From: Thermosulfurimonas dismutans
GTDB lineage: Bacteria; Desulfobacterota; Thermodesulfobacteria; Thermodesulfobacteriales; Thermodesulfobacteriaceae
DNA length: 32,000 nt
NCBI RefSeq assembly: GCF_001652585.1
Contig: NZ_LWLG01000004.1
Coordinates: 60,001 to 92,000 of the forward strand
Direction of reading: 5' to 3'
The translations under genes were made by a program, and so were the position numbers. The notes beneath the pieces were generated by a model that was not told the DNA's origin, searched no databases, and saw nothing but the letters and a program-made list of their open reading frames with translations. Positions 2,928-32,000 of the stretch are shown piece by piece (the first letter of the stretch is position 1; every line of letters starts with the position of its first letter).

Positions 2928-3316
2928 GCCTCAAAGTTATAGGCTTCCTTTGCGAGTGGTGTGCGGCCAAGGCTTTGGAAAACCTAGCTTTCAAAAGAAA
3001 GACGTTACCAGAAGGCTTCTATCCTATAAGAGTCCCCTGTAGTGGCACGGTAGATTTAGAAGTCGTAAGGAAGGCCCTTGAAAAAGGGGCTTCCGGAGTG
3101 CTGGTAGGTGGTTGTCCTCAAGGAGAATGTCATTTCAGAGAGGGGAATCTACGAGCCGGTTTGAGGATTATAGCTTATCAAAAACTTCTCTCCGCTCTAG
3201 GATTAAATCCTAGAAAACTTAAAGCGGTCTGGGTTTCGGCTAGCGAAGGAGAAAAACTCTATCAAGAAATTTGGCGTTTTTGGGAGGAACTAAAGGGTGA
3301 AGGTAGCCCTTTATAA
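2924..3316 (+). CDS. mvhD: MvhD-like delta subunit of methyl-viologen-reducing (F420-non-reducing) hydrogenase
   Basis: 130 aa. Cys pattern FLCEWCA...VPCSG...GGCPQGECHF is typical of MvhD/FlpD. ATGA start/stop overlap with hdrA. Confidence 0.85.
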   Translation: MSLKVIGFLCEWCAAKALENLAFKRKTLPEGFYPIRVPCSGTVDLEVVRKALEKGASGVLVGGCPQGECHFREGNLRAGLRIIAYQKLLSALGLNPRKLKAVWVSASEGEKLYQEIWRFWEELKGEGSPL

Positions 3317-4106: not shown

Positions 4107-5464
4107 AGAAGCTAAAAATTCATCCTCTCACTCGCATCGAAGGTGATGCCTCCCTAGAAATAGTTTTCGATGATCAGGGAAATCTTAAACGTCTAAGATG
4201 GCTTTCGGAGCTTTTCCGAGGTTTCGAAAAAATCTGTCTGGGAAGACCAGTAGAAGAAATGCCCTTTTTAACCAGTCGCATCTGCGGTATTTGTGCCGAA
4301 GCTCACCATTTAGCCTCCCTCAGAGCTGTGGATCAAATTTTCGGGTTAACTCCCCCCCCTTGGGCCCAAAAAGTAAGGGCCATCTTCTTACTCTCTTCTC
4401 TCGTAAGAGACCACCTTACCGTCCTTTACCTTTTTTCAGGCCCAGACCTCAAGCCCAGCCCACAAAATAGGGAGGCCTTGGCCTGGCTAAAAGAAAATGG
4501 ACTGTTACACGATTTTCTCCAAAGCCGCTCTCGAATCAGACGAATACTTGAAATCGTAGGGGGCCGGGGACTTCAGGCAGTAGGAGGATTCCCTGGCAGC
4601 TGGAGCAAATCAATAACTGCTGAAGAAAAAGAAGAATTAATACAGCTTACACAAAAAGAAAGAGCCTTTGCGGCTAAAACGTTCGATTTTTTTGGTGAAA
4701 TTCTTTTAAAGAAAGAATATCAAAACCCCCTAAAAATTCCTTTTTTGGCCCTTTTACCGGACAATCTGCCAGGCTTTTTAGGTCGAAGGATTGGCATCCT
4801 GACCTCAGAAGAGAAACCCTATAAGGATTTCCGCGCAGAAAAATTTCAAGAATATATAGTTGAAGAAGATTCTACAGAATGCCCAAACCTTCGAACCACT
4901 CAATTAAAATCCTTAGGCCCCTATCTCGTAGGACCTTTGGCACGCTTTCATCTTTGGCCAGAACCTTCTACCCCCCTGGCCCAAAAGGCCTACCGAGAAA
5001 TCAAGAACTGTTTAAAACACCAACAACTTAGGGACTACGAAATAGCCCATCTCTTTAGGGCCTACGAAATTTTATTGGCTTGCGAACAAATAGAAAGCCT
5101 ATCTCAAGAGATTGAAATTCAGCGAAAAGATGAAAAAGAGCCGAAATTTGAGCTTCAAAGAGAAGGCATAGGAGTAGTCGAAGCCCCTAGGGGTCTTCTG
5201 ATCCACCATTACCAGGTAGACAAAAAAGGGCTTATCACAAAGGTTAATATCATCACTCCCACAGCCCAAAACTCTCCGATCATTTTCATGACTATAAGGG
5301 CCTACCTAAAATCTTCTCCAAAAAACAATCCTCAAAAATTAACTAAAGATATCGAAAAAATCATAAGAGCCTTTGATCCGTGCGTTCCATGCATGCTACA
5401 TATCATCCCCTCCAATAAGGACGCGGCCAAATTATCAATCGCCATTCAAAATAAGAGTTTTTAA
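4103..5464 (+). CDS. mvhA: Group 3c [NiFe] hydrogenase large subunit (MvhA-like)
   Basis: Contains RIEGDASLEI, the N-terminal Ni-Fe ligand motif RICGICAEAHH, and the C-terminal DPCVPCMLH followed by a 20-aa extension (the usual protease-cleaved tail). ATGA overlap with mvhG. Confidence 0.85.
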   Translation: MKKLKIHPLTRIEGDASLEIVFDDQGNLKRLRWLSELFRGFEKICLGRPVEEMPFLTSRICGICAEAHHLASLRAVDQIFGLTPPPWAQKVRAIFLLSSLVRDHLTVLYLFSGPDLKPSPQNREALAWLKENGLLHDFLQSRSRIRRILEIVGGRGLQAVGGFPGSWSKSITAEEKEELIQLTQKERAFAAKTFDFFGEILLKKEYQNPLKIPFLALLPDNLPGFLGRRIGILTSEEKPYKDFRAEKFQEYIVEEDSTECPNLRTTQLKSLGPYLVGPLARFHLWPEPSTPLAQKAYREIKNCLKHQQLRDYEIAHLFRAYEILLACEQIESLSQEIEIQRKDEKEPKFELQREGIGVVEAPRGLLIHHYQVDKKGLITKVNIITPTAQNSPIIFMTIRAYLKSSPKNNPQKLTKDIEKIIRAFDPCVPCMLHIIPSNKDAAKLSIAIQNKSF

Positions 5465-5476
5465 TTTATAAACGAC

Positions 5477-5493
5477 ATAAATTGCCAATTTAT
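5477..5493. promoter_or_regulatory. 17-bp perfect palindrome ATAAATTG-C-CAATTTAT in the AT-rich gap between the two hydrogenase operons; candidate operator
   Basis: Arms ATAAATTG / CAATTTAT are exact reverse complements around one central base. It lies 13 nt after the mvhA stop and about 120 nt upstream of the uptake-hydrogenase start. No regulator can be assigned. Confidence 0.3.
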
Positions 5494-5615
5494 TAAAATA
5501 AAAATATTGTATTTTAGCTTATCAGTCGATATTTTCCAGAACAAACATTGACTTAACCTTGCCTTTCTGGTAAGAAGGTAGTGTTAAAAACATTTTAGAT
5601 ATTTTGGAGGGGGTC

Positions 5616-6710
5616 ATGTCCAGAATCCCGTTTTTAAGGATGGAAGGTCTTTCCCGAAGAGATTTCTTGAAGATTTGTACCATCGCCACGGCCACCATGG
5701 GACTCCCAGTGGAAATGGTAGACAAAGTGGCCGCGGCTGTAAAATCGCCGGAACGGCCACCAGTCATCTGGCTGCACTTTATGGAATGTACAGGCTGCAC
5801 GGAAAGTCTCCTGCGGTCCTCACATCCCCCACTGGCCCGCCTTATTCTAGAACTGATCTCCTTAGAATATCATGAGACCCTCATGTCCGGGGCCGGCAAG
5901 CAGGCTGAGGAGGCCCTGAAGAAGGCCCTAGAAAAATACAAGGGCAAATTCATCTGTGTAGTAGAAGGTGGCATTTCCACCAAGGACGGGGGCATTTACT
6001 GCAAGATAGGTGGACGTACGGCCCTAGAAATTGTAAAAGAGGTGGCTTCCGAAGCCGCGGCGGTCATCGCCATCGGAACCTGTGCGGCCTTCGGAGGGGT
6101 ACAAGCGGCCCACCCCAACCCCACCGGGGCGGTAGGGGTAGGTCAAGTCCTTGATCGGCCTGTCATCAACATACCCGGCTGTCCCCCGAATCCCTATAAC
6201 TTCCTTTCCACGGTACTATATATCTTAACCTTCAAACACCCCCCAGAACTTGACGAGCTTTCAAGACCCAAGTTCGCCTACGGCCGGAGAATTCACGATC
6301 ATTGCGAAAGGCGCCCCCACTTTGATGAGGGGCGATTTGTGGAGGCCTTTGGCGATCCCGCTCACCAGAAAGGTTACTGCCTTTACAAGGTGGGGTGCAA
6401 AGGGCCGGTGACCTACTCCAACTGCTCGGTAGTTCGGTTTTGTGATGTAGGGGCCTGGCCGGTAGGCGTGGGGCATCCCTGCATAGGGTGCACGGAACCC
6501 AACTTTTGGGATCGGATGACCCCCTTCTACGAACATCTCCCCAAGATTTACATCCCTGCAGGCGGCGGTATCCGAGCCGAGGCCGAAAAAGTTGGGAAAG
6601 TGGCGGTTGGTGGAGCCGCGGCCGTGGTAGCAGCCCATGCTGCCGCCGGGGTCATCAAAAAAGCGGTCAAAAGCTTTGGCCGCAAAGGAAATCAGGAGTC
6701 TGAAGAATAA
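5616..6710 (+). CDS. hyaA: Membrane-bound (group 1) [NiFe] uptake hydrogenase small subunit, Tat-exported
   Basis: Start set at ATG 5616 (GGAGGGGG just upstream). Twin-arginine signal SRRDFLKICTIATATMGLP. Fe-S ligand motifs ECTGCTES, GTCAAFGG and PGCPPNP. Hydrophobic C-terminal anchor. Confidence 0.9.
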   Translation: MSRIPFLRMEGLSRRDFLKICTIATATMGLPVEMVDKVAAAVKSPERPPVIWLHFMECTGCTESLLRSSHPPLARLILELISLEYHETLMSGAGKQAEEALKKALEKYKGKFICVVEGGISTKDGGIYCKIGGRTALEIVKEVASEAAAVIAIGTCAAFGGVQAAHPNPTGAVGVGQVLDRPVINIPGCPPNPYNFLSTVLYILTFKHPPELDELSRPKFAYGRRIHDHCERRPHFDEGRFVEAFGDPAHQKGYCLYKVGCKGPVTYSNCSVVRFCDVGAWPVGVGHPCIGCTEPNFWDRMTPFYEHLPKIYIPAGGGIRAEAEKVGKVAVGGAAAVVAAHAAAGVIKKAVKSFGRKGNQESEE

Positions 6711-6721
6711 GGAGGCTTATT

Positions 6722-8434
6722 ATGGCCAGAAAAAGAGTAACCATAGACCCTATTACCCGCATTGAAGGCCATTTAAGGATCGATGTGGAGGTCGAGGGAG
6801 GGAAAGTAAAAGAAGCCTGGGCTTCGGCTCAGATGTGGCGAGGTATAGAGGTCATTCTTAAGGGGCGCGACCCTAGGGATGCCTGGGCCTTCACACAGAG
6901 GTTCTGCGGCGTCTGCACCACGGTACACGCGATAGCTTCTGTTCGGGCGGTGGAAAGCGCCCTTCAAATGGAAATCCCTTTAAACGCTCAGTATGTACGG
7001 AATATCATTCTATGCGCCCACGCCTTGCACGACCACATCGTACATTTCTATCATCTCTCAGCCCTCGACTGGGTGGATGTGGTCTCGGCCTTGAAGGCCG
7101 ACCCTAAAAAGACTGCAGCTTTGGCCCAGAGTCTTTCGGATTGGCCAGGGAATAGCGTAACCTTTTTCATGGACGTCAAGAAAAAACTGGAAAAGTTTGT
7201 CTCAAGTGGCCAGCTTGGCCCCTTTAGCACCGGTTATTGGGGGCATCCGGCCATGCAACTTCCACCGGAAGTCAATCTTCTAGCCGTAGGACATTATCTC
7301 GCGGCCTTGGATTACCAATACAAAGCCAATCAAGTGGTAGCCCTTTTCGGCGGGAAGACCCCTCACATTCAGACCTTAGTGGTAGGTGGAGTGGCCCTGG
7401 CCATCAATCCTGAAAACGAAGCCACTTTAAACATGGAAAGGCTGGCTTGGGCCAAAGAACTCCTCCTTCAAGTCCGAGATTTTGTACACCAAGTTTATTT
7501 CGTAGACGCCGTGGCCCTGGCGGCCCTTTATTCGGATTGGTTCAAAATCGGAGCCGGGGTCACCAATTATCTGGCGGTGCCTGATCTCCCCCTAGATACC
7601 AAAGGAACGGAGTTCGATTTACCAGGGGGAACGATTTTTAACGGAGATCTTTCTACAGTTAAACCCATTACCAGTTTCAACGATGCCTATTTCCGGGACA
7701 ATGTAACCGAATGCGTGATGCACTCCTGGTACGATGGGGATTGGACTCGGCACCCCTGGCAGGAGGATACCGTCCCCAAATACACCGAATTTCAGGATGA
7801 AGGCAAATATTCTTGGGCCAAGGCCCCTCGTTTCAAAGGAGAGCCCATGCAGGTAGGGCCACTAGCGCAGGTACTTGTAGGTTATGCCCTTGGTCACGAA
7901 CTTATTAAAAAATGGACAGACGAAGCCCTCAAGAGGATCTCGTCCATCTCGGGGAAACGCATCACCATAGAAGATCTGCATTCCACCATGGGCCGGCAGA
8001 TAGCTCGAGCCATCCGAACCGCAGTACTAGCAGAACTGGCCCTGAAACATTTGGATCTCCTAATTGAAAATATTGGACGCGGAGATCTTGAAATCTATCC
8101 TTACCGCAAGCCGCCGACCTTCCCCAAGGGCGAGATCATGGGCTTCGGTTTTCACGAGGCCCCGCGGGGAACTCTTTCCCATTGGGTGGTCATCGAAAAC
8201 GGCAAGATCAAAAACTACCAGGCGGTGGTGCCCTCCACCTGGAATGTCAGCCCCCGGTGTCAGCTTGGAAAACGCGGACCTTACGAGGAGAGTCTGATCG
8301 GCAATCCTGTGGCCCAGCCCGAAAAGCCCCTGGAGGTGCTCCGAACCATTCACTCCTTCGATCCCTGCATCGCCTGTGCTGTACATGTACTCGATCCCAA
8401 AAGAAAGGAAATAGCGAGGGTTAAGGCCCTCTGA
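6722..8434 (+). CDS. hyaB: Membrane-bound (group 1) [NiFe] uptake hydrogenase large subunit
   Basis: 570 aa with RIEGHLRIDV, RFCGVCTTVH and the C-terminal DPCIACAVH plus a 15-aa cleavable extension. Ligands are Cys, not Sec (no in-frame TGA). Confidence 0.95.
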   Translation: MARKRVTIDPITRIEGHLRIDVEVEGGKVKEAWASAQMWRGIEVILKGRDPRDAWAFTQRFCGVCTTVHAIASVRAVESALQMEIPLNAQYVRNIILCAHALHDHIVHFYHLSALDWVDVVSALKADPKKTAALAQSLSDWPGNSVTFFMDVKKKLEKFVSSGQLGPFSTGYWGHPAMQLPPEVNLLAVGHYLAALDYQYKANQVVALFGGKTPHIQTLVVGGVALAINPENEATLNMERLAWAKELLLQVRDFVHQVYFVDAVALAALYSDWFKIGAGVTNYLAVPDLPLDTKGTEFDLPGGTIFNGDLSTVKPITSFNDAYFRDNVTECVMHSWYDGDWTRHPWQEDTVPKYTEFQDEGKYSWAKAPRFKGEPMQVGPLAQVLVGYALGHELIKKWTDEALKRISSISGKRITIEDLHSTMGRQIARAIRTAVLAELALKHLDLLIENIGRGDLEIYPYRKPPTFPKGEIMGFGFHEAPRGTLSHWVVIENGKIKNYQAVVPSTWNVSPRCQLGKRGPYEESLIGNPVAQPEKPLEVLRTIHSFDPCIACAVHVLDPKRKEIARVKAL

Positions 8435-8444
8435 GGAGGTAGCC

Positions 8445-9119
8445 ATGGCTAAGAAAAAAGAGATCCTTTACCGTCGGGTGTTTGTATGGAGTTGGGCCCT
8501 CAGGATATTTCACTGGACCTTTGCCCTTTCCTGCGCGGTCCTGATCCTAACGGGGATCTACATTCACTATCCCCCCATCACCACCAAGTGGGCGGAGTTC
8601 AAACCCCAGTATCTCATGGGAACCCTGCGATACTATCACTTCACGGCCGCATACTTCTTCATGGCGGCCTTGGCCGTAAGACTTTACCTGTTATTTTTCG
8701 GGAACCGCTACGAGCGCTTCACGGATTTTCTGCCCATCAACCGCCGAAACCTTAGATCATTCTGGCGTTCCCTCAAGTTTTACCTCTACCTCACGGACGA
8801 GCATGAGTGGCGCATGGGGCACACCGTGCTCGCGGGCACCATCTATTTTCTCTTGTTCCTGGCGGCGGTGGTCATGAGTATCACCGGGCTCTACCTCCTC
8901 TATCCGGATATCTCCTGGATAAGCAAAATGGGGGTGGCCCTTTTCGGTTCGGCCCAGATGGCCCGTTTTATCCACTATATCCTCCACTGGTGTTTCATCT
9001 TCTTTGTGATCGTGCATCTCTACATAGCCATCTGGAACGACTTTAAGGCTCCGGAGGCCATCATCTCCGGTGCCTTCTCCGGCTCCAAGTTCATGCCCGC
9101 GGATGTGAAGGAGGATTAA
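8445..9119 (+). CDS. hyaC: Ni/Fe-hydrogenase b-type cytochrome subunit
   Basis: 224 aa and very hydrophobic. It has about four helices with conserved His (RIFHWTF, YYHF, HYILHW...VHLY) and follows the large subunit directly. Confidence 0.85.
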   Translation: MAKKKEILYRRVFVWSWALRIFHWTFALSCAVLILTGIYIHYPPITTKWAEFKPQYLMGTLRYYHFTAAYFFMAALAVRLYLLFFGNRYERFTDFLPINRRNLRSFWRSLKFYLYLTDEHEWRMGHTVLAGTIYFLLFLAAVVMSITGLYLLYPDISWISKMGVALFGSAQMARFIHYILHWCFIFFVIVHLYIAIWNDFKAPEAIISGAFSGSKFMPADVKED

Positions 9120-15616: not shown

Positions 15617-16562
15617 CTTTTAGGGCCATCCGGAAATCTTCCTTTTGAATTAAGTTTAATACCTCCTTAGGAACCTCATCAAGGACAAGCCTCTGGAGAA
15701 ACGGATATCCTCCGGGGAAGCCCCCAAGACGAGAATAAAACCGGTCAAGGGGTTCCAGGGCCCCGTTGCCATTTAGATCCCGGACATAAAAAAGAGGTCT
15801 TCCAGAAAAGGACTCTATCCCCACAACCTCAATAGCTCTAGCACCATTTCTTTTGGCCGAAAGAAGAATCTTAAGGTCTAGTTGATATTCACTCAGGAAC
15901 AAATTCAACCGAGCCTGCCAGCCATCCTCTTTCAAAAAGTCTGGCACTACTAACTCGCTCATGATCTCAAAAAACGACCGGTTACGATTGTAAATTAAGA
16001 CGGGAGTTCCAGGTTCCACGAAACGGTAAACACTCTCCATGTCTCGATCGGCAAGGGCTATACATCCGTGAGTCCAGTTCCTTACCAATCTGGACTTGCC
16101 TTTGCGATAAAGGCCTCCCCCGTGAATACCTATCCCATTGCCAAGAGGACCATCCAAACTTCGACCAGCCTTATAAGCCTCCAAATATTGTTGATATTCC
16201 TCTTCCGTCAATCTTCCTTCCCAAAAGGCCTTTCGAATATCTTTAAGATTGGGATAATCCAGCCCTACAAAGAGGTAATATTTACGGGAAGGTCTCTTAT
16301 ACCTCACCTTATAAAGTCCTTCAGGGGTGGCCAAATCTCCCTTTTTGCTTTTGGAAATCAGCGGGTTAAGTCCAAAGGAACAGGGGAAAGAAGCTATCTC
16401 CTTTCCCTGCTGATAGAGAGTCAATGTCTTAGAGGCCTTCTCGATCACAATCCATTTATCATCCTTCCTGGTTTGGAATGGAAAAGAAAATCCCCCTAAA
16501 AACAAAAAAATTATTCCCGCAAGTGAAAAAAGCCTAAAAAAGCCTTTAAAAATTTTTAGCAT
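15600..16562 (-). CDS. L,D-transpeptidase (YkuD-domain) family protein with N-terminal membrane/signal segment
   Basis: Has IGIHGG...[13 protein letters not shown] (the catalytic His/Cys signature of YkuD) and a hydrophobic N-terminus [17 protein letters not shown]. Confidence 0.75.
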
Positions 16563-16595
16563 ATACCAAACCGATTTTTTATCTCAAAACCAGAT

Positions 16596-16624
16596 TTGAA
16601 AATTTCGGGATAGAGCCTTATTAT
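16596..16624 (+). promoter_or_regulatory. Sigma-70-like promoter for the small secreted-protein gene
   Basis: TTGAAA (16596-16601), a 17-nt spacer, then TATTAT (16619-16624), about 40 nt upstream of the start codon. Confidence 0.45.
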
Positions 16625-16667
16625 AATAATATCTTAAATTAAACCAAATCTTAAAGGAGGTATGGCT

Positions 16668-16868
16668 ATGAGGAAGAAATTGGTAGCGCTTGCCATGGCG
16701 GTGGTTTTTGCGGCTCCTATGGGTGCCCTGGCCAAATCCTGCAAGGGAACCATTAAAGAATTTGACGGCAAGACCATGGTAGTTAAAATCAAGGGTAAGT
16801 GCAAGGCTGAAGCTGGCCAGGACGTAAAAATCAAAGTTCAGAAAAAGGCCGCTGTTGAAGGTTGCTAA
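16668..16868 (+). CDS. Small secreted Lys/Cys-rich protein (about 66 aa precursor, about 44 aa mature), unknown function
   Basis: GGAGG (16656-16660) is 7 nt before ATG 16668; ATG 16662 is too close to it. Signal peptide MRKKLVALAMAVVFAAPMGALA|KS. The mature part has three Cys, including the C-terminal residue (...AAVEGC). The gene has its own promoter and terminator. Confidence 0.6.
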   Translation: MRKKLVALAMAVVFAAPMGALAKSCKGTIKEFDGKTMVVKIKGKCKAEAGQDVKIKVQKKAAVEGC

Positions 16869-16884
16869 AACCATAGAAAATTGG

Positions 16885-16908
16885 GGGGCGGGTTAGCCCG
16901 CCCCTTTT
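16885..16908. terminator. Rho-independent terminator between convergent genes
   Basis: GGGGCGGG-TTAG-CCCGCCCC (8-bp GC stem) followed by TTTT. It starts 17 nt after the small gene's stop, and its T tract overlaps the stop codon of the cooC-like gene on the other strand. Confidence 0.75.
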
Positions 16909-17665
16909 AAGCTAACATTTCTTCAAAGAGTCTATACGCCTGCACAAGAAGAGGGTGTTCTGAGGGCAAGTCCCAAATAGGTCTTTGGTTGACTTCTAGT
17001 TCAAATATCTCTTTACTTTCCGAAAGATAGCCTAGAAACGAGAGGGTTTCCTTTTCGCAGGTCTCTCTAACATATTTGTCCAAGGCTTCAGGAATCTCTT
17101 CAGGGGCTCGGTTGACGAGTAACCATTTGTGCCCAACCTGAAGCTGAAGGGGTTTCACCAGGGCAGCAATTCGAGCCGCCGTAAGAACCCCCCTCGAAGA
17201 GGCGTCTGAGACCACCAGGAGATGATCGATCTCCGTCATGTTTAATCGGGAGAGATGTTCCATCCCGGCCTCGTTGTCCACTACCATGTAAGCGTAACTC
17301 TTCTCAATTTTCTGTAAGGCCTGAGAAAGAAAAGAATGGGCCGCACAATAACATCCCGGCCCTTCAGGCTGTCCCATCACTAAAAGATCGTAACCTTCGG
17401 CCTCTACCATGGCTTCATGGACCCTCATCTCCATAAAATCTCCCCGGGACATACTCTCAGGGACACTGGTCCTAAGCTCGTTCTTGACTTCTCCCAAAGT
17501 GGTTTCCACCTCAAGCCCTAAAAGCTCATTCAAATTGGCATTGGGATCGGCGTCCACTGCCAGCACCGGCCCCTTGCCAGTTTCCACCAGATAGCGAATG
17601 AGAAGCGCAGCGGTCGTGGTTTTCCCGGTCCCCCCCTTGCCAGCCAGAGCAATCCTTACCGCCAT
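16907..17665 (-). CDS. CooC/AcsF-type P-loop ATPase (MinD/ParA superfamily; nickel-insertion accessory protein family)
   Basis: Deviant Walker A GKGGTGKTT and the CxC metal motif GPGCYCAAH characteristic of CooC-type proteins. 252 aa. Confidence 0.7.
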   Translation of the reverse strand: MAVRIALAGKGGTGKTTTAALLIRYLVETGKGPVLAVDADPNANLNELLGLEVETTLGEVKNELRTSVPESMSRGDFMEMRVHEAMVEAEGYDLLVMGQPEGPGCYCAAHSFLSQALQKIEKSYAYMVVDNEAGMEHLSRLNMTEIDHLLVVSDASSRGVLTAARIAALVKPLQLQVGHKWLLVNRAPEEIPEALDKYVRETCEKETLSFLGYLSESKEIFELEVNQRPIWDLPSEHPLLVQAYRLFEEMLA

Positions 17666-22662: not shown

Positions 22663-22717
22663 ACAATGCGAAGGATACTAGGAAATCTGAGGGCTCGAAA
22701 GGAGTTTTTTAATCAAG

Positions 22718-22791
22718 CGCCCCCGGGAGGACTCGAACCTCCGACTCCGGGATTAGGAATCCCGTGCTCTATCCGCCTGAGCTACGGGGGC
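22718..22791 (-). tRNA. tRNA-Arg (anticodon CCU)
   Basis: The reverse complement folds as a 74-nt cloverleaf: acceptor GCCCCCG/CGGGGGC, D stem GCTC/GAGC, anticodon stem CGGGA/TCCCG with loop TTCCTAA, T arm GGAGG-TTCGAGT-CCTCC, discriminator G. CCA is not encoded. Confidence 0.9.
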
Positions 22792-23167
22792 AAAGTGCCG
22801 AAATTGTTATTCTGTAGGAATCTTACCAGGATCAGCCCCTGGCTTCAAGAGCGTTCAAATCGGGTCAAAACAGACCAATTGCAATCAATTTTGCTTGCAG
22901 TTTGCTTGCACCCGTTAGCATGCTCATGGAGAGTTTTCAAAAGTGCCTTTATCACGCCCAATTCTTTTAAATGCTGGCAACCGACTTTAGCCACCGATAT
23001 CCTGCCGAAAACGATTTCGAAAGCCCTAAATTTAGGACTAATCACTGAAAATACTTAGGACTAATTGCGTTACAGCACTGTTTCACTCCGTTGTACAGGA
23101 TAAGTTAGTCTTTGAGGTTCCAGTTATCTTTCTCGTCACGCTACTTCACGACAGAGCCAACATTAAG

Positions 23168-24223
23168 CTAAAATCTATCAAATTTTTCCTGACCTTTAAG
23201 ATTATCAATTAAAAACTCTTTAAATTCTTTTTCAAATAAATTGAATGTTGTTTTTTTGAGCTCGGATAGATCTATAACATCATTTTCTTCAGAAATTAAT
23301 TTACTATAAATGCTTTTAACTATCTTTTCGTTTATTGTGTCTAAAAATCGGAAAGCAGAGGTTGCAAGATAAATTTGATTAATTTCAAAGGCAATCCATT
23401 TGCGACCTAATTTTTCTGCCGTTGCTCCAGTAGTATTTGAACCAGCAAAAATGTCTAAAACCACATCTCCTGGGTCGGTCAAAAACTTTATAAAAAATTC
23501 AGGGAGCTTTTGCGGAAATCTTGCAGGATGAGGTTTTACACCTACTATTTTACAACACCTTAAATATTGCGAATTACTTTCAGTATTTGGTATCTCAAGT
23601 AGGTTAGAAGGGATTGCTCCTCCCTTATTTTCAGAAAAGCGTTTACTTATGTTGTGTCCGGAAGGCCTTTTTTTGGGAGAATAATATTTTTCACTATTCT
23701 GAAGAAGAATTTTCATTCTTTCAGAATAAGGAACTAGTACTTTAGTAACATTTGCTTTGGGAAAATCGGATTTTGATAACCACCATATAGTATTAACAGC
23801 ATCTTTAACACGAATTTTGCGTTTGTTGACCCATTCTATAGGAGATGGAAGTTTAGATGGATTATACCAAAAAAATTCTTCTGCTAAATTCCATCCCTGT
23901 TCATCGCAAAGTCTTATAAGAAGTCTATAGTTATAAAGTGAACGTACAGGTCTCCCTTTAAGATAAACTCCTCCGAGGTCAAGTACAAAACTACCTGTTT
24001 TTTTTAATACTCTCTTTACTTCAATGGTAAAATTTAAAAGCCAATCTATATATTCATTTTGATCTACATTGCCGTAATCTTTTTGACGTTGTAATGGAAA
24101 TGGAGGTGAAGTTATTACAAGATCTATCGATTCTTCTGGTAGGAATTTAAGTAAACTCAAAGCATCTCCTACATAAGCTTCCCCTAAACGCGTTTTATAC
24201 AACAATTTGAACGAAGATTTCAT
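23168..24223 (-). CDS. Beta-class DNA methyltransferase (N4-cytosine/N6-adenine family; SPPF motif favours m4C)
   Basis: Start set at ATG 24223, in an ATGA overlap with the stop of the upstream gene (GGAG 6 nt upstream). Motif IV is DLVITSPPF near the N-terminus and motif I is DIFAGSNTTGATA near the C-terminus (order IV then I, i.e. beta class). Confidence 0.85.
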   Translation of the reverse strand: MKSSFKLLYKTRLGEAYVGDALSLLKFLPEESIDLVITSPPFPLQRQKDYGNVDQNEYIDWLLNFTIEVKRVLKKTGSFVLDLGGVYLKGRPVRSLYNYRLLIRLCDEQGWNLAEEFFWYNPSKLPSPIEWVNKRKIRVKDAVNTIWWLSKSDFPKANVTKVLVPYSERMKILLQNSEKYYSPKKRPSGHNISKRFSENKGGAIPSNLLEIPNTESNSQYLRCCKIVGVKPHPARFPQKLPEFFIKFLTDPGDVVLDIFAGSNTTGATAEKLGRKWIAFEINQIYLATSAFRFLDTINEKIVKSIYSKLISEENDVIDLSELKKTTFNLFEKEFKEFLIDNLKGQEKFDRF

Positions 24224-25689
24224 AAATTCTCCTCTAATCTCCAAATCCAGCTTGACATTATTTTCCAAAATACAGTCACAGCAAAATATACCTCTTTATC
24301 TTTCATCTTAATTTGTTCCATTCCATTGATATATCTCTGGGGATCCTGCATACCAATAATATAAGCAACCCATTTCCGAGCTTCTTCATCAGTCAAAAGA
24401 TCTAACATTTCTTCGAGTCTAAATTTTCCTGTCTGGCTTAATGCCCATGCTATTCCTGCTCTTTCTAATTCATTACTTTCTGAAAATTTTTTTATTATTT
24501 CAAAAGTAAATTGTCGAGCAAGTTTACTTAAAGCCCTAGCAGCTTCAATTTGTATATTTTTTTCAGTGGCATTAAAAGCTTCAATGAGTGCATCTATAGC
24601 TCTTTTGTTGCTCAGTTCTCCAAGAGCCCAAGCCGCTCCAGCACGTATTTCTGCATCTTGCTTCTTATCTAAAAGAATTTCTATTAACATTTGGCAAGAA
24701 GCATCATTATTAATTTCTCCTAATATTATCACAGCTTCTAATCTGCATTCTAAAGAATCATTTGTTAAGCATTGTTTAATAAATTCATATCCAATATCAT
24801 TTCCTTGTCGAAATAGACTTGCGGCTGCTTCAAGTTTTATAAGGAAATGTTCATATTGATCTTTAAGTTTCTTAACAAGAAGATCAGTAATCTCGGAAGA
24901 ATGAAAAAAAGCAAGGGCTTTTATAGCAGCATATTTATTAGTTAATAATGAACTAGAGAGCCACTTTATAAAATCTTCTTCTGAAAATAGCCTCTCACAT
25001 GGCAAAGTTGAGGTTACAGGAACTACAGAAGCTATGATCTGATTTTTAGTAATCTTTTCACCTTCTTTGACCAAAGGCTTCAATCTTTTGTTTTGCTTCC
25101 AAAGTTTTAAAGGTATAATTCTTCCGTTACTTTCTTTTCGATATTTCAACCGATCAGACTCAATTGATATAACAGTCCCGGCTGCCGAAGCAATACTTGC
25201 CGGCCATTGTATTCTCATCTCAAAACCTTCTTCTGCTCCTTTTGGTTGGGTTAAAATGGTAAGATTGTTTTGGTGGGCTAATCGTAAATCTCTAACAGAC
25301 ACATATTGAATAGGACCGTCTATTTCCCAAGATAATGGATTATTTCCTATTTGTTTGCATGCAACAAATGCAACAAAATCGTCATCTTTTAAGCCATAAT
25401 CCCATTTCCGATTTTGATTAGATTCAGAATGAGACATAGAAATTTCAAGTTTACTTTTTGCTCTACATTCAATACATCTTCCGCATTTTATACAAAGCAA
25501 ATCAGGAACTCTAATGCGTTTAATTTTTATCTTTTTCCAAATTTTAAAGCTCATTGATCCTCGTTCTAATTCAATAGGCTTATGTTCTAACTTTTTTAAA
25601 TGATCAAAGATAGCTATGGTTCCTGTTGCGCCAAGAGAAATTTTTTTTAAAAAACTCTCATCAGATTTAAATGCCTTTCTATTCGCCAT
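24220..25689 (-). CDS. 489-aa fusion protein: N-terminal PD-(D/E)xK-like nuclease signature with a CX2CX2CX2C cluster, a central barrel-like segment, and C-terminal HEAT/PBS-lyase-like repeats
   Basis: VPD63LLCIKCGRCIE74CR76AKSK resembles the PD...ExK strand pair (xPDLIxxKxGxxxxIEVK) with K replaced by R. GTVISIE...LVKEGEKITKNQIIASV resembles a lipoyl/hybrid-barrel motif. Repeats: ECRLEAVIILGEINNDASCQMLIEILLD, EIRAGAAWALGELSNKRAIDALIEAF, IQIEAARALSKLARQ, ELERAGIAWALSQTGK. AAGGAG lies 9 nt upstream of ATG 25689. Confidence 0.65.
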   Translation of the reverse strand: MANRKAFKSDESFLKKISLGATGTIAIFDHLKKLEHKPIELERGSMSFKIWKKIKIKRIRVPDLLCIKCGRCIECRAKSKLEISMSHSESNQNRKWDYGLKDDDFVAFVACKQIGNNPLSWEIDGPIQYVSVRDLRLAHQNNLTILTQPKGAEEGFEMRIQWPASIASAAGTVISIESDRLKYRKESNGRIIPLKLWKQNKRLKPLVKEGEKITKNQIIASVVPVTSTLPCERLFSEEDFIKWLSSSLLTNKYAAIKALAFFHSSEITDLLVKKLKDQYEHFLIKLEAAASLFRQGNDIGYEFIKQCLTNDSLECRLEAVIILGEINNDASCQMLIEILLDKKQDAEIRAGAAWALGELSNKRAIDALIEAFNATEKNIQIEAARALSKLARQFTFEIIKKFSESNELERAGIAWALSQTGKFRLEEMLDLLTDEEARKWVAYIIGMQDPQRYINGMEQIKMKDKEVYFAVTVFWKIMSSWIWRLEENL

Positions 25690-25737
25690 CTTATGATACT
25701 CCTTTTTTAGTACGCATTCTCAATAAGATGCGAGTTT

Positions 25738-26373
25738 TTAGTACTTCTTGATCTTCTGGCACACCACGCCCACGATTTCGTGCTCGTCGGTCAATTCGAT
25801 TTCCGGGTATTTTGGATTCAGGGGGCGGAGGATCCGCTTGTCGCCGTAAACCTTGAGTTGCCTCAGCACGGCCTCGCCCCTGCCGTTGCACGCCACCACG
25901 TAGCTCCCGGAGATGGGCCTGCGGGTGGGGTCCACCACAATGATGTCCTCCTCCGTGAACTCGGGCTCCATGGAGTCGTCGTTGACTCTCAGGGCGAAGG
26001 CTCGCGGGCTCGCAGGGATCACCTCCACCCAGTCCCAGTGCTCCTCAGAGGCGCGGTCGGCCACCTTGAGGCCGTGGGAAGAGAGCTCTGTAGCTCCCCA
26101 GGTTTTGATCCAGCTCCAGGGGACCACCGGCACCTTCTCAACCCTCCTCACCTCAAGCCCCGCGGCCTCGGCAACCTCCTCAAAGGGCACCCCGAGGCCC
26201 AGGGCCAGCTTCTTCAGCGTTTCCACCTTGGGCTTTCGCTCGCCACGCTCAAGGAGCCGGATGTACTTCTCCGAGAGCCCGCTCCGCTTCGCGAGCTGGT
26301 TTATGGAGAGCCCCGCCTCCTCCCGCTTCCTGCGCACCCATTCGCCGAAGCTCACAGCCACACCTCCTGACAT
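25738..26373 (-). CDS. CI/LexA-like repressor: N-terminal XRE-type HTH plus C-terminal S24 autopeptidase domain
   Basis: HTH: LSINQLAKRSGLSEKYIRLLERGERKP. S24: ALRVNDDSMEPEF (catalytic Ser) and VLRQLK (Lys). An alternative start is GTG 26355, preceded by AGGAGG at 7 nt. Confidence 0.85.
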   Translation of the reverse strand: MSGGVAVSFGEWVRRKREEAGLSINQLAKRSGLSEKYIRLLERGERKPKVETLKKLALGLGVPFEEVAEAAGLEVRRVEKVPVVPWSWIKTWGATELSSHGLKVADRASEEHWDWVEVIPASPRAFALRVNDDSMEPEFTEEDIIVVDPTRRPISGSYVVACNGRGEAVLRQLKVYGDKRILRPLNPKYPEIELTDEHEIVGVVCQKIKKY

Positions 26374-26397
26374 TTGTCCTATCCAAAAACTTTTCTC

Positions 26398-26426
26398 TTG
26401 ACAATTTCGGACTTTTGTCCGATAAT
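26398..26426 (+). promoter_or_regulatory. Near-consensus sigma-70 promoter of the Cro-like gene; probably gives a leaderless mRNA
   Basis: TTGACA (26398-26403), a 17-nt spacer, then GATAAT (26421-26426). The A of ATG 26433 is 7 nt after the -10 hexamer and no SD sequence intervenes. Confidence 0.6.
26406..26421. promoter_or_regulatory. Operator candidate O-a: TTCGGACTTTTGTCCG (inverted arms CGGAC/GTCCG) inside the promoter spacer
   Basis: The exact 16-mer recurs at 26639-26654. The inverted repeat sits between the -35 and -10 hexamers. Confidence 0.55.
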
Positions 26427-26432
26427 AAAACC

Positions 26433-26669
26433 ATGTCCACCGTTCACTTTAATCCGGAGGTCCTGAGGAGGCTAAGGGAGGAGATGGGGCTCACCCGCGC
26501 CGAGCTTGAGGCCAGAAGCGGCGTGGACCGGGACACCATCTACGCCTGGGAGAGTGGCCGAAGGACGCCCTCGGCCCGGAGGCTGGCCCAGGTCGCCCAG
26601 GCCCTCGGCGCAAGGCTCGACGATTTTTTTGGCCCGTGTTCGGACTTTTGTCCGCAAAAAGATGGCTAG
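26433..26669 (+). CDS. Cro-like XRE-family HTH protein
   Basis: 78 aa from ATG 26433. HTH: LTRAELEARSGVDRDTIYAWESGRRTP. Divergent from the CI-like gene. Confidence 0.75.
   Translation: MSTVHFNPEVLRRLREEMGLTRAELEARSGVDRDTIYAWESGRRTPSARRLAQVAQALGARLDDFFGPCSDFCPQKDG
26639..26654. promoter_or_regulatory. Operator candidate O-b: second exact copy of TTCGGACTTTTGTCCG, 8 nt upstream of the replication gene start
   Basis: Identical 16-mer to 26406-26421. It lies within the 3' end of the cro-like gene. Confidence 0.5.
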
Positions 26670-27534
26670 CCCCCAGGTGGAAAACGGCTACACCAGGATC
26701 GCGAACGAGCTCCTGGAGGCCCTCTGCCGGGCCAGGCTCGGGAGCCGGGAGCTCAAGGTAGTGCTGGCGGTGGTGAGGCTCACATACGGCTTTTTGCGCA
26801 AAGAAAACACCATCTCCCTGGGAAAGCTTGCGGAAATGACGGGGTTGAGAAGAGAGAGGCTCTCAGAAGTGGTCAAAGCCCTTGAGCGGAAAAATGTCCT
26901 GCGGGTCAGCAAGGAAAATGGCCGGCTGATCCTGGGACTGCAAAAAGACTACTCCAAGTGGACGGGAGGGGTGTCCCAAAAACGGGGTACCCCAAAATTG
27001 GGACTGTCCCAAAAAAGGGTGTCCCAAAAACGGGGAACAGGGTGTCCCAATTTTGGGGAACAGGGTGTCCCAAAAAAGGGGAACACCCACACCCCTCAAT
27101 CCCTTGAGTCTCAAGCGTTTCACGGCCCCCTAAAGAAAATATATAAAGAAAACTTTAAAGAAACATCATCTATCTACAGAGAGGACGACTTCAAAGAAGT
27201 GATCTCCAAGTGGGAGGAGGTCTTCGGGGAGGCGTTTCCCCTTGAGAGGGCGCCGGAGAGCGTGAGGGCGGCGGACTTCATGCTTTACCTTCACGAGGCC
27301 GGGAGGCTCCCCGCGGTGAAGCGCCCCTCGGCCTACCTGAGAAAGCTTGCCGCGAGCGAGCTTGAGCCTTTCCCGAGCCTCGCCGAGCGGCGGGCCGCGG
27401 CCCGGGACGCAGAGGAGCGGATGCGCGAGCTCAACCGCCAACAGCTCGCCAAGCTCTACGCCCGCATGATGGCCGAGGGCTGGCCGGTCGAGGTCCCCGA
27501 GGAGCTCAGGCCCCTTGTGGCCCAAACCCAATAG
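26662..27534 (+). CDS. Phage replication initiator, lambda O-like N-terminal domain
   Basis: Start set at ATG 26662. MASPQVENGYTRIANELLEALCRARLGSRELKVVLAVVRLTYGF matches the replication-protein-O N-terminal pattern (nGyT.ipNellE.l....L...e.rvll.i.R.TyG). The iteron array and AT-rich patch lie inside the linker-coding part. Confidence 0.75.
   Translation: MASPQVENGYTRIANELLEALCRARLGSRELKVVLAVVRLTYGFLRKENTISLGKLAEMTGLRRERLSEVVKALERKNVLRVSKENGRLILGLQKDYSKWTGGVSQKRGTPKLGLSQKRVSQKRGTGCPNFGEQGVPKKGNTHTPQSLESQAFHGPLKKIYKENFKETSSIYREDDFKEVISKWEEVFGEAFPLERAPESVRAADFMLYLHEAGRLPAVKRPSAYLRKLAASELEPFPSLAERRAAARDAEERMRELNRQQLAKLYARMMAEGWPVEVPEELRPLVAQTQ
26971..27088 (+). repeat. Iteron array (putative ori): at least five copies of (G/C)TGTCCCAA(A/T)4-5(C)GGGG, the last three on a 23-bp period
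   Basis: Copies at 26971-26987, 27004-27019, 27019-27035, 27042-27058 and 27065-27081. An inverted variant CCCAAAATTGGG lies at 26991-27002. GGGGAACAGGGTGTCCCAA repeats exactly at 27032-27050 and 27055-27073. Confidence 0.75.
27131..27180. other. AT-rich patch next to the iterons (candidate DNA-unwinding element)
   Basis: TAAAGAAAATATATAAAGAAAACTTTAAAGAAACATCATC has 7 G/C in its first 40 nt, within an element that is otherwise about two-thirds GC. It starts about 45 nt after the last iteron. Confidence 0.5.
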
Positions 27535-31227: not shown

Positions 31228-31506
31228 CCTCTTTCAGTTGTAGCCCTCCGGCCCCTTATGCGGCGCAAGGCCTCCGGCCCCTGACGGGGCCTCCGCAAGC
31301 TCGCTCCGGGGCTTTGCCCCTCCGCTCGGCCTTGCCCCGCGGGGCCTCCGGGCTGTTCCAAAAGTGCGGGGTTCGGCTGGGGAAAAAGGCTTTTGGGTTT
31401 TTTTGGCCTGGGGGCCTTGGGGCTCTGTGCCTCCGGGGCCTGTGGGTCCGGCCCTTCCGCCTGCGGTGGGGCCGGCCCGTTAAAAAAACTTTTGGGGGTG
31501 TGGCTA

Positions 31507-32000
31507 TGGGCGGCGTTTCTCCCTTGGCTTGCCTTCCGGTTTTTTCGGCGGTTTCGGTCTCGGCGGTGGCCTTCGGGGGCGGGGCGGTGCTCCGGCGCTC
31601 GTCCCGGTCGCTCTCCGGGTTCGTGGCCTGGTGCTGGTTCCCGTCCTGGGGGCTTGCCCGGCGGTGGGCCTCCTTCTGGGCCGGGCGGCTTCCGGCCGCG
31701 TGCCGGGGCGTGGTGGTGCGCCGGGCGCCGTTTCCGGCCTCGGGGTGGGTGGTTTCCGTGCCGGTGCTCCCTCGGGTGGGGGCGTGCCGTGGTTAGGTTG
31801 CCGGGGTGGGCTTCGGCGGCCGGGGGCCGGGTGCTCCGGGTTCTCGGCCCCGCGGTGACGGTCTGGTTCCCCTCCGGGTTTCTGGCCCAGGCCTTCGCCC
31901 TCTCCTGCGGGCTCTCCCCGGCTCGGGCCTTCCGGGCGCCCTCCGGGGGCTTTGCCGTGGTGGTGCCGGCCTCGGCCCTCTCCTCCGTCCGGCCCCGGTG
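31507..32000 (+). other. Adenine-free tract on the + strand (T-free on the - strand), running to the window edge
   Basis: Direct count: no A in 31507-31794 (288 nt). Only three A (31795, 31858, 31889) in 31507-32000. The tract is G > C > T in composition. Confidence 0.95.

Follow-up and report, generated by a model that had tools for sequence, protein, structure and literature searches.

A candidate CAGCTG-specific restriction-modification cassette with a HEAT-repeat protein as putative endonuclease in Thermosulfurimonas dismutans

Gene content and boundaries of the cassette

We analyzed a stretch of 32,000 nucleotides (nt) from Thermosulfurimonas dismutans (contig NZ_LWLG01000004.1, positions 60,001 to 92,000 of the forward strand), which is referred to below as the window. 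Two adjacent genes on its minus strand encode a 489-amino-acid (aa) protein and a DNA methyltransferase, and together they probably form a self-contained Type II restriction-modification (R-M) cassette that recognizes CAGCTG, in which the 489-aa protein would be an endonuclease of a new family. This reading builds on direct observations of the identity of the methylase, the conserved synteny of the two genes, the position of distant family members behind R-M controller (C) proteins, and the depletion of CAGCTG in carrier genomes.

The 489-aa protein is 100% identical to a T. dismutans protein in the NCBI database that is labeled ‘HEAT repeat domain-containing protein’. Its stop codon overlaps the start codon of the methylase gene, and an AGGAG box can be read in the sequence 7 nt upstream of this ATGA overlap. 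Judged from the sequence, the overlap is likely to couple the translation of the two genes. A longer version of the methylase open reading frame (ORF), which starts at TTG and encodes 366 aa, is likewise open and was judged unlikely. The GC content is 0.32-0.35 over positions 23001-25500, compared with about 0.5 on the left and 0.60-0.69 on the right. At a finer scale, the drop starts exactly at the stop codon of the methylase gene (23168), and the DNA is AT-rich from the stop codon of the upstream cI-like repressor gene (25738). The foreign block thus amounts to only about 2.57 kb (23168-25737) and comprises the two genes and a 48-nt leader. All of the features that a first-pass annotation had reported for this block, namely the two minus-strand genes, the ATGA overlap, the low GC content, and the 48-nt gap to the cI-like gene, were found in the window, and their coordinates are given in Table 1.

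Table 1. Coordinates of the cassette genes, their domains, and neighboring features in the window
Feature	Coordinates	Strand	Description
489-aa gene	25689..24220	minus	ORF; putative restriction endonuclease, HEAT-family protein
Methylase gene	24223..23168	minus	351 aa from ATG; predicted beta-class N4-cytosine DNA methyltransferase
ATGA overlap	24220..24223	minus	stop TGA of the 489-aa gene and start ATG of the methylase gene, read in the sequence
Leader	25690..25737	minus	48 nt, AT-rich, separating the stop codon of the cI-like gene from the start codon of the 489-aa gene
N-terminal basic domain, residues 1-145	25255..25689	minus	proposed catalytic and DNA-binding core
PD-(D/E)xK-like motif	25456..25506	minus	P62-D63, ten residues, E74-C-R76-A-K78; also C66, C69, C72, C75
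Barrel-sandwich hybrid (lipoyl-like) domain, residues 146-235	24985..25254	minus	Foldseek and profile matches
Phycobilisome (PBS)-type HEAT solenoid, residues 236-489	24223..24984	minus	Pfam HEAT_2 and HEAT_PBS; acidic
cI/LexA-like repressor gene	25738..26373	minus	Pfam HTH_3 and Peptidase_S24; context gene of the phage-like element
tRNA-Arg(CCT)	22717..22791	minus	ARAGORN; Rfam tRNA 65.9 bits; context

The methyltransferase

The methylase has motif IV (DLVITSPPF) ahead of motif I (DIFAGSNTTG) in its sequence. It matches the Pfam family N6_N4_Mtase (PF01555, 1e-44) and the PADLOC model MTase_II (PDLC03323, 4e-154), and it aligns over its full length with M.PvuII (PDB 1boo; query residues 6-314, E-value 6.5e-135), the N4-cytosine methylase for CAGCTG. 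Motif order, the SPPF signature, and this homology together confirm the earlier call of a beta-class N4-cytosine enzyme. The alignment also spans the segment that separates the SPPF motif (IV) from the FAGSNTTG motif (I), and this segment is where the target-recognition region of a beta-class enzyme would lie. By its sequence, therefore, the protein is an M.PvuII-type N4-cytosine methyltransferase, and its predicted site is CAGCTG. The locus has the composition of a Type II R-M system, in that a methyltransferase with S-adenosylmethionine-binding and catalytic motifs lies beside a candidate endonuclease gene.

Synteny and operon position of the family

The genes for three homologues of the 489-aa protein located on long contigs are each followed on the same strand by an N6_N4 methylase gene, and the other neighboring genes are different each time. 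A scan of one genome per species identified 80 loci in many bacterial and archaeal phyla, the hosts including Methanophagales, Thermococci, Chloroflexota, Nitrospirota, Verrucomicrobiota, Planctomycetota, Bacteroidota, Cyanobacteria, and Proteobacteria. When loci from metagenomes were added to these 80 species, 84 of 86 loci had an M.PvuII-like methylase (61-83% identical to that of the window by tblastn) as the next gene downstream in the same orientation; the other two both end at a contig edge. The adjacency of the two genes seen in the window is thus a general property of the loci examined, and related loci show the same tight junction, with the putative endonuclease gene (R) followed by the methylase gene (M). 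Of about 82 loci, only 2 (L067 and L073) carry a frameshift in the 489-aa gene, which there is split between two frames near residue 420, and the methylase gene is intact; the split could mean that the endonuclease gene is decaying or that the metagenome-assembled genome contains an assembly error.

More distant members of the family (26-30% identity) have a different operon structure. In locus L088, an M.PvuII-like methylase gene, whose product is 63% identical to that of the window, is divergent from a gene for an 84-aa helix-turn-helix (HTH) protein (1906-2160), and the latter overlaps the HEAT-family gene. The best PDB matches of this HTH protein are C.BclI (4e-17), C.AhdI (2e-12), and C.Esp1396I, all of them R-M controller proteins. 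Small HTH genes also precede the HEAT-family gene in loci L091 (1499-1738, abutting) and L093 (2117-2374, 5 nt apart). The divergent methylase in these two loci is a different enzyme (598 aa in L093, cut by the contig end in L091), with motif I first and a DPPF motif after it. In the PvuII system, pvuIIR lies directly behind pvuIIC, with the methylase gene divergent. The distant family members thus occupy a pvuIIR-like position behind a C protein, and the HEAT family as a whole has at least two types of methylase as partners, a flexibility also seen in restriction-enzyme families. At least two specificities are probably represented in the family.

No homologue of R.PvuII was detected by tblastn in 94 related loci or in the window, so that the HEAT-family gene is the only conserved endonuclease candidate. 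We also considered whether the 489-aa protein might itself be a divergent R.PvuII, and this identity was rejected (hhalign probability 0.1%).

Depletion of CAGCTG in carrier genomes

We calculated observed-to-expected (O/E) ratios of hexamers from a maximal-order Markov expectation, obtained per locus and pooled over 82 non-redundant cassette loci. In the 513 kb of flanking DNA, CAGCTG ranked first of 4,063 hexamers for depletion, with an O/E ratio of 0.18, and the next word had a ratio of 0.49. CAGCTG was likewise the most depleted hexamer within the cassettes (O/E 0.13), and it was wholly absent from 62 of the 82 loci. Related words were far less depleted (0.95 for CAGCGG/CCGCTG, 0.77 for CCGCGG, and 0.69 for CTGCAG). 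For 80 metagenomic mreB loci without a cassette (617 kb), which served as controls, the O/E ratio of CAGCTG was 0.80 and its rank was 46. When only loci of 6 kb or longer were counted, CAGCTG was missing altogether from 47 of 65 with a cassette and from 9 of 55 controls.

The site purged from carrier DNA is thus the one that had been predicted beforehand from the homology of the methylase, and such purging is the expected signature of active CAGCTG-specific restriction. The depletion is indirect evidence of restriction pressure in the carriers on the same site that is the predicted target of the methylase. Avoidance of R-M target sites is documented for prokaryotic viruses and plasmids (PMC6286503, PMC10359461).

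Domain organization of the 489-aa protein

The whole protein was modeled with AlphaFold2 from 33 homologues (predicted local distance difference test score, pLDDT, 87; predicted template modeling score, pTM, 0.83), and a second model of residues 1-236 was made from 27 diverse homologues (pLDDT 90.8). Profile scans with hidden Markov models (HMMs) took as query the full-length protein, residues 1-236, or both.

In the models, residues 1-145 consist of a helix (10-33) followed by strands at 38-40, 64-66, 72-78, 83-87, and 105-113. The residue pair P62-D63 opens one predicted strand, the sequence E74-x-R76-x-K78 lies in the next, and E42 follows the first strand. The two strands that carry the motif, 64-66 and 72-78, form a predicted beta hairpin, and a long, basic, conserved loop (residues 41-62) lies between the first two predicted strands. 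The residue pattern of PD-(D/E)xK nucleases is therefore present as a variant, with D and E-x-(R/K) on adjacent strands after a helix-strand unit and with R dominant at the last position. The spacing is likewise that of minimal-core members of this superfamily, with E42, about 20 residues, P-D63, ten residues, and E74-x-(R/K)76, and we take it to be similar to that of archaeal Hjc and T7 endonuclease I. The predicted order of helix, strand, strand, and strand, with D starting one strand and ExK in the next, would also agree with this superfamily. In contrast to known PD-(D/E)xK nucleases, the domain has no profile or Foldseek match, mostly R at position 76, an additional invariant K78, and the long basic loop 41-62.

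Sequence and structure searches with this region were negative within the following limits. Even when the E-value limit was relaxed to between 1 and 10, according to the library, residues 1-145 had no match in Pfam, NCBIfam, PADLOC, or PHROGs. Searches of PDB sequences, both single-sequence and profile-based, matched only HEAT proteins and an RNA polymerase beta barrel. Foldseek comparison of the N-terminal model with PDB and BFVD gave barrel matches only, with no match to known members of the PD-(D/E)xK core fold, and the full model matched HEAT scaffolds only. The N-terminal domain is probably a divergent PD-(D/E)xK fold.

Residues 146-235 form a small beta barrel, for which the first-pass annotation had suggested a lipoyl or hybrid-barrel segment. 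This suggestion agrees with the Foldseek match to the barrel-sandwich hybrid motif of the RNA polymerase beta subunit (E-value 4e-4 over 65 columns) and with the profile match of the barrel to residues 632-694 of the same subunit in PDB (E-value 0.006); weak matches to RnfC_N and Biotin_lipoyl_2 were also obtained. The barrel opens with the conserved sequence K150-G-A-E-E154-G155-F-E157...W162.

HEAT repeats of the PBS-lyase type, also recognized in the first-pass annotation, cover approximately residues 270-440 according to Pfam (HEAT_2, 1.6e-23 in 4 stretches; HEAT_PBS, 2.6e-11). The AlphaFold2 model predicts a solenoid of about 17 helices. The HEAT half of the protein matches alphaRep proteins among PDB sequences (E-value 8e-37), and the top Foldseek matches of the full model are alphaRep, CpcE/F, PP2A-A, and importin-alpha. 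The C-terminal 250 residues thus resemble PBS-lyase-type HEAT proteins by their matches to HEAT_2, HEAT_PBS, and alphaRep, and weakly to NblB and CpcE. CpcE/F, NblB, Mth187, and alphaRep differ in being stand-alone scaffolds or lyases, without a nuclease-like fusion or a link to a DNA methyltransferase. Scans of the HMM libraries detected neither an ATPase nor a helicase domain in the 489-aa protein.

Size, conservation, and charge of the family

More than 1,500 clusters at 90% identity match the full 489-aa protein; in the best 120 of them, nearly all members are 470-504 aa long (one has 559 aa), with 53-64% identity. An exhaustive HMMER search with residues 1-263 produced 359 representatives at 50% identity, and among the best 150 of these, fragments aside, almost all are 470-530 aa long. 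Given this uniform length, the N-terminal half is not seen in a clearly different architecture among the 150 matches listed.

We calculated conservation and charge for 65 diverse members with 26-54% identity. All 15 invariant residues are within positions 1-162 (K8, F13, G20, W51, K57, R60, D63, E74, K78, S86, R94, W96, D104, E157, and W162), and 13 of them belong to the N-terminal domain. The D63-x10-E74-x-R76 motif of the first-pass annotation is thereby borne out, with D63 and E74 invariant, P62 kept in 97% of members, and position 76 occupied by R in 59 and by K in 6 of the 65. Its cysteine cluster CX2CX2CX2C exists in the query, but it does not extend to the relatives: C66 is present in 63 of 65 members and C69 in 46, R occupies position 72 in 59, and V or S predominates at position 75. 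The four-cysteine run is therefore confined to the subgroup of the query, and an iron-sulfur or zinc cluster was rejected as a feature of the family.

Mean net charge falls from +4.8 in the N-terminal domain (query, +10) through +1.7 in the barrel to -13.6 in the HEAT domain (query, -8), and all but two of the conserved K/R positions are in the first 150 residues. The HEAT domain is also the least conserved part of the family. The first-pass annotation had proposed it as a DNA-reading module by analogy with the AlkC/AlkD glycosylases, with which it shares an alpha-solenoid in a DNA-related context. In contrast to what would be expected of a DNA-binding solenoid, namely a basic surface, the one described here is net acidic. 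Neither AlkC nor AlkD was among the 50 best fold matches, and there was no match to the AlkD family in Pfam. Since it is acidic, poorly conserved, and similar to protein-binding scaffolds of the PBS, alphaRep, PP2A-A, and importin types, the solenoid is unlikely to be a DNA reader.

In the literature on HEAT-repeat restriction enzymes, PvuII isoschizomers, CAGCTG methylomes, and CAGCTG avoidance, we found no description of the 489-aa family. As far as could be checked in Pfam, NCBIfam, PADLOC, PHROGs, and the literature, with REBASE outside the comparison, the family is new.

Comparison with the PvuII system

The system of Proteus vulgaris is the closest point of reference for the cassette. 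The likeness includes the full-length M.PvuII homologue with the SPPF motif of N4-cytosine enzymes, the inferred site CAGCTG backed by site depletion, and the divergence of M from C-R in some distant members of the 489-aa family. The two systems differ in their endonucleases, as R.PvuII has 157 aa, whereas the candidate endonuclease described here has 489 aa in three domains. In addition, no C gene was found in the window cassette, in which R and M are collinear and overlap. The cassette thus shares the methylase of the PvuII system but not its endonuclease.

Mobility, genomic context, and expression

An apparent insertion of a related cassette was identified by comparison of two strains. In locus L001, a lower-GC segment of 2.62 kb with two genes (5920-8541) lies between an HD-domain gene and lptF, whereas locus L096, from a strain whose DNA is about 90% identical, has 149 bp of intergenic DNA at this site (2881-3029). 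The 2.62-kb insertion matches the 2.57-kb block of the window in size. No obvious repeats flank the insertion in L001. In a Bacillota-like genome (L004, 4745-12209), the cassette is located between an integrase gene and a Type IIG-like gene of the N6_Mtase/Eco57I type, which suggests a small defence island.

In the other genomes, the cassette lies among ordinary chromosomal genes. A single contig among 2.9 million in IMG/VR carries the family, which was found in 0 of 50,697 phage records (INPHARED) and 0 of 72,556 plasmid records (PLSDB). Its near-absence from phage collections indicates that the cassette is not a phage module in general, and its GC content of 33%, against 60-69% for the adjoining phage-like element, points to a separate origin.

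On the left side of the cassette in the window, a tRNA-Arg(CCT) gene located 376 nt from the methylase stop codon is followed by host genes for a CDP-alcohol phosphatidyltransferase and a MiaB-like radical-SAM enzyme. On the right side is the early region of the phage-like element, with genes for the cI/LexA-like repressor, a Cro-like HTH protein, Rep O, RusA, and an SNase-like nuclease. The tRNA gene was considered as an attachment site and rejected, because it points its 3' end away from the cassette and a search for repeats of the tRNA found none. The 376-nt spacer itself contains two close copies of ATTAGTCCTAA at about 23040-23075.

The cI-like gene is co-oriented with the cassette and ends 48 nt upstream of the 489-aa gene. 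The leader between them contains a good ribosome-binding site, AAGGAG (25704-25699), as well as a hairpin of 6 bp (25713-25732). On its minus strand, neither a sigma-70-like promoter nor a terminator was detected in these 48 nt, and the hairpin scores as a terminator for the plus strand only. Since the cassette follows the cI-like gene at this distance and no promoter of its own was detected, transcription by read-through from the cI-like gene is plausible in this genome. As in the distant operons, an HTH gene is thus located directly upstream of the putative endonuclease gene in the window too. The HTH domain of the cI-like protein (26158-26361) is 41-44% identical to the C proteins of these operons (tblastn E-value about 1e-9), which is probably a generic HTH_3 similarity.

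Proposed function and alternative explanations

With a probability of about 0.78, we interpret the block as a self-contained Type II R-M cassette that recognizes CAGCTG, with the 489-aa protein as the endonuclease of a new family. The methylase would protect host DNA by N4-methylation of the inner cytosine of CAGCTG. We infer that the 489-aa protein, unrelated to R.PvuII, cuts unmethylated copies of the site. Its basic N-terminal domain would bind metal and cut DNA by means of E42, D63, E74, R/K76, and K78, and the DNA contacts may come from conserved basic loops (K49-R60, R94, and K150) together with the adjacent barrel domain. The acidic HEAT solenoid might serve, more speculatively, as a scaffold for oligomerization or control rather than as a DNA reader. 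The R-then-M order with its ATGA overlap would couple the translation of the two genes. The first-pass proposal of an R-M pair whose non-methylase partner has a new architecture gains strength from the synteny, the position behind C proteins, the CAGCTG depletion, and the absence of the family from the libraries, with the nuclease role of the partner as its conditional element.

Several points weigh against this interpretation. Most members of the family carry R in the motif where K would be canonical. The host part of the window (22.6 kb) shows no depletion, as it contains 4 CAGCTG sites compared with 2.3-2.8 expected, so that either the activity in T. dismutans is unproven or the acquisition was recent. 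Moreover, depletion reflects selection against CAGCTG in the carriers and does not identify the protein that is responsible.

As an extension of the proposed function, the HEAT solenoid could be a control or docking module that restrains the nuclease or tethers it to the methyltransferase or to another partner, which would make the protein a gated or partner-dependent enzyme. We put this forward only tentatively, as a possibility of rather low probability.

A related but unlikely explanation holds that the 489-aa protein is a nuclease without a sequence reader of its own and that its HEAT domain docks onto the methyltransferase, which would supply the recognition of CAGCTG. Such an arrangement would resemble the logic of Type III or Type IIG systems, minus the ATPase. 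It would account for the tight R-then-M overlap in almost all loci, and it agrees with the nature of PBS-type HEAT repeats as protein-binding scaffolds (alphaRep, PP2A-A, and importin being among the top fold matches) and with the acidity of the domain, which is unlikely to bind DNA. It is harder to reconcile with the distant members, whose divergent R and M genes are controlled by a C protein in the manner of independent Type IIP enzymes, and with the pairing of the family with an unrelated methylase of about 590 aa. In addition, the cassette methylases are about as near to M.PvuII as they are to the most distant cassette methylases (61-83%), so that no separate cassette-specific clade is evident.

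Restriction by another chemistry is a somewhat less probable explanation. Here the 489-aa protein would be a restriction glycosylase or lyase similar to R.PabI, or would have its active site at K150/E154/E157. The absence of a fold or profile match to any PD-(D/E)xK family could be understood in this way, as could the presence of R instead of the canonical K in 59 of 65 members and the second cluster of invariant acidic and basic residues at positions 150-162. Nevertheless, the residue pattern, its spacing, and the placement of the predicted hairpin fit the PD-(D/E)xK template of helix, strand, PD-strand, and ExK-strand, and six members do have K at position 76. The HEAT repeats are of the PBS type, and AlkC/AlkD proteins are missing from the 50 best fold matches.

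We regard as slightly more doubtful again the view that the methyltransferase is effectively an orphan, or epigenetic, enzyme and that the HEAT protein is no nuclease but an accessory that might act as a regulator or chaperone or read the methylation state. The conditional status of the nuclease role, the annotation of the 489-aa protein as nothing more than a HEAT-repeat protein, and the undepleted T. dismutans window would all be compatible with it. However, strong depletion of CAGCTG is specific to carrier genomes, the gene lies directly behind R-M controller proteins in distant members, and the D/E/K triad is invariant. The patchy spread across phyla and the 2.6-kb insertion with an empty-site counterpart are likewise typical of mobile R-M units.

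Least probable of all is the suggestion of the first-pass annotation that the cassette is a phage-owned superinfection-exclusion module on the lysogenic repressor transcript, like rexAB of lambda: the position directly behind a co-oriented cI-like gene stands, as do the lack of a detected minus-strand terminator or own promoter in the 48-nt gap and the phage-like nature of the adjoining element (Cro, Rep O, and RusA genes), but the cassette has no similarity to Rex or any PHROG family, its composition is foreign to the phage (GC 33% against 60-69%) with edges exactly at two stop codons, and elsewhere it is not linked to phages, given a single IMG/VR contig in 2.9 million, none among INPHARED phages or PLSDB plasmids, and ordinary chromosomal neighbors in other genomes.

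Each of these alternatives is less consistent than an R-M cassette with the C-operon position, the pairing with an unrelated methylase, the site depletion, or the distribution of the family.

Implications

If the 489-aa protein is an endonuclease, a widespread family of bacteria and archaea, with at least 359 clusters at 50% identity, would consist of restriction enzymes; at present its only label is ‘HEAT repeat protein’, and PADLOC does not detect it. As far as we checked, no restriction enzyme with a nuclease-like head joined to a barrel-sandwich hybrid and a HEAT solenoid has been described before. The cassette would also be a case of partner replacement, in which one lineage of M.PvuII-type methylases is served by two unrelated endonucleases. 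In general terms, the system would be of a familiar kind, its novelty lying in the endonuclease family and the unusual architecture; a new principle would be involved only if the HEAT domain gates or tethers the nuclease. In that event, it would represent a new operating mode for Type II systems and the first restriction enzyme with a HEAT scaffold.

From a practical point of view, the family could supply a thermostable isoschizomer of PvuII. Carriers are predicted to restrict DNA with unmethylated CAGCTG, which is relevant to the genetics of T. dismutans, Chloroflexus, and their relatives. The site-depletion statistics pooled over many carrier genomes allowed us to assign a specificity without experiment, and the approach is reusable.

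Additional observations in the window

Two features of the phage-like element resemble the early region of lambda. The cI-like and Cro-like genes are divergent, with a near-consensus promoter TTGACA-17-GATAAT at 26398-26426 (plus strand) in the interval 26373-26430, and by analogy this arrangement looks like a lambdoid immunity switch. The Rep O-like gene (26506-27534, plus strand) includes four to five iterons of the form TGTCCCAAAAA[AC]GGG at 26965-27085, which probably mark the replication origin of the element, as in lambda.

Further low-GC patches are present in the host DNA of about 50% GC, at 5001-5500 (0.38) and 16501-17000 (0.41). Finally, the plus strand of region 31500-32000 is nearly devoid of A (GC 0.76, AT skew -0.93), and all three of its reading frames are open, because the near-absence of A allows no stop codon.

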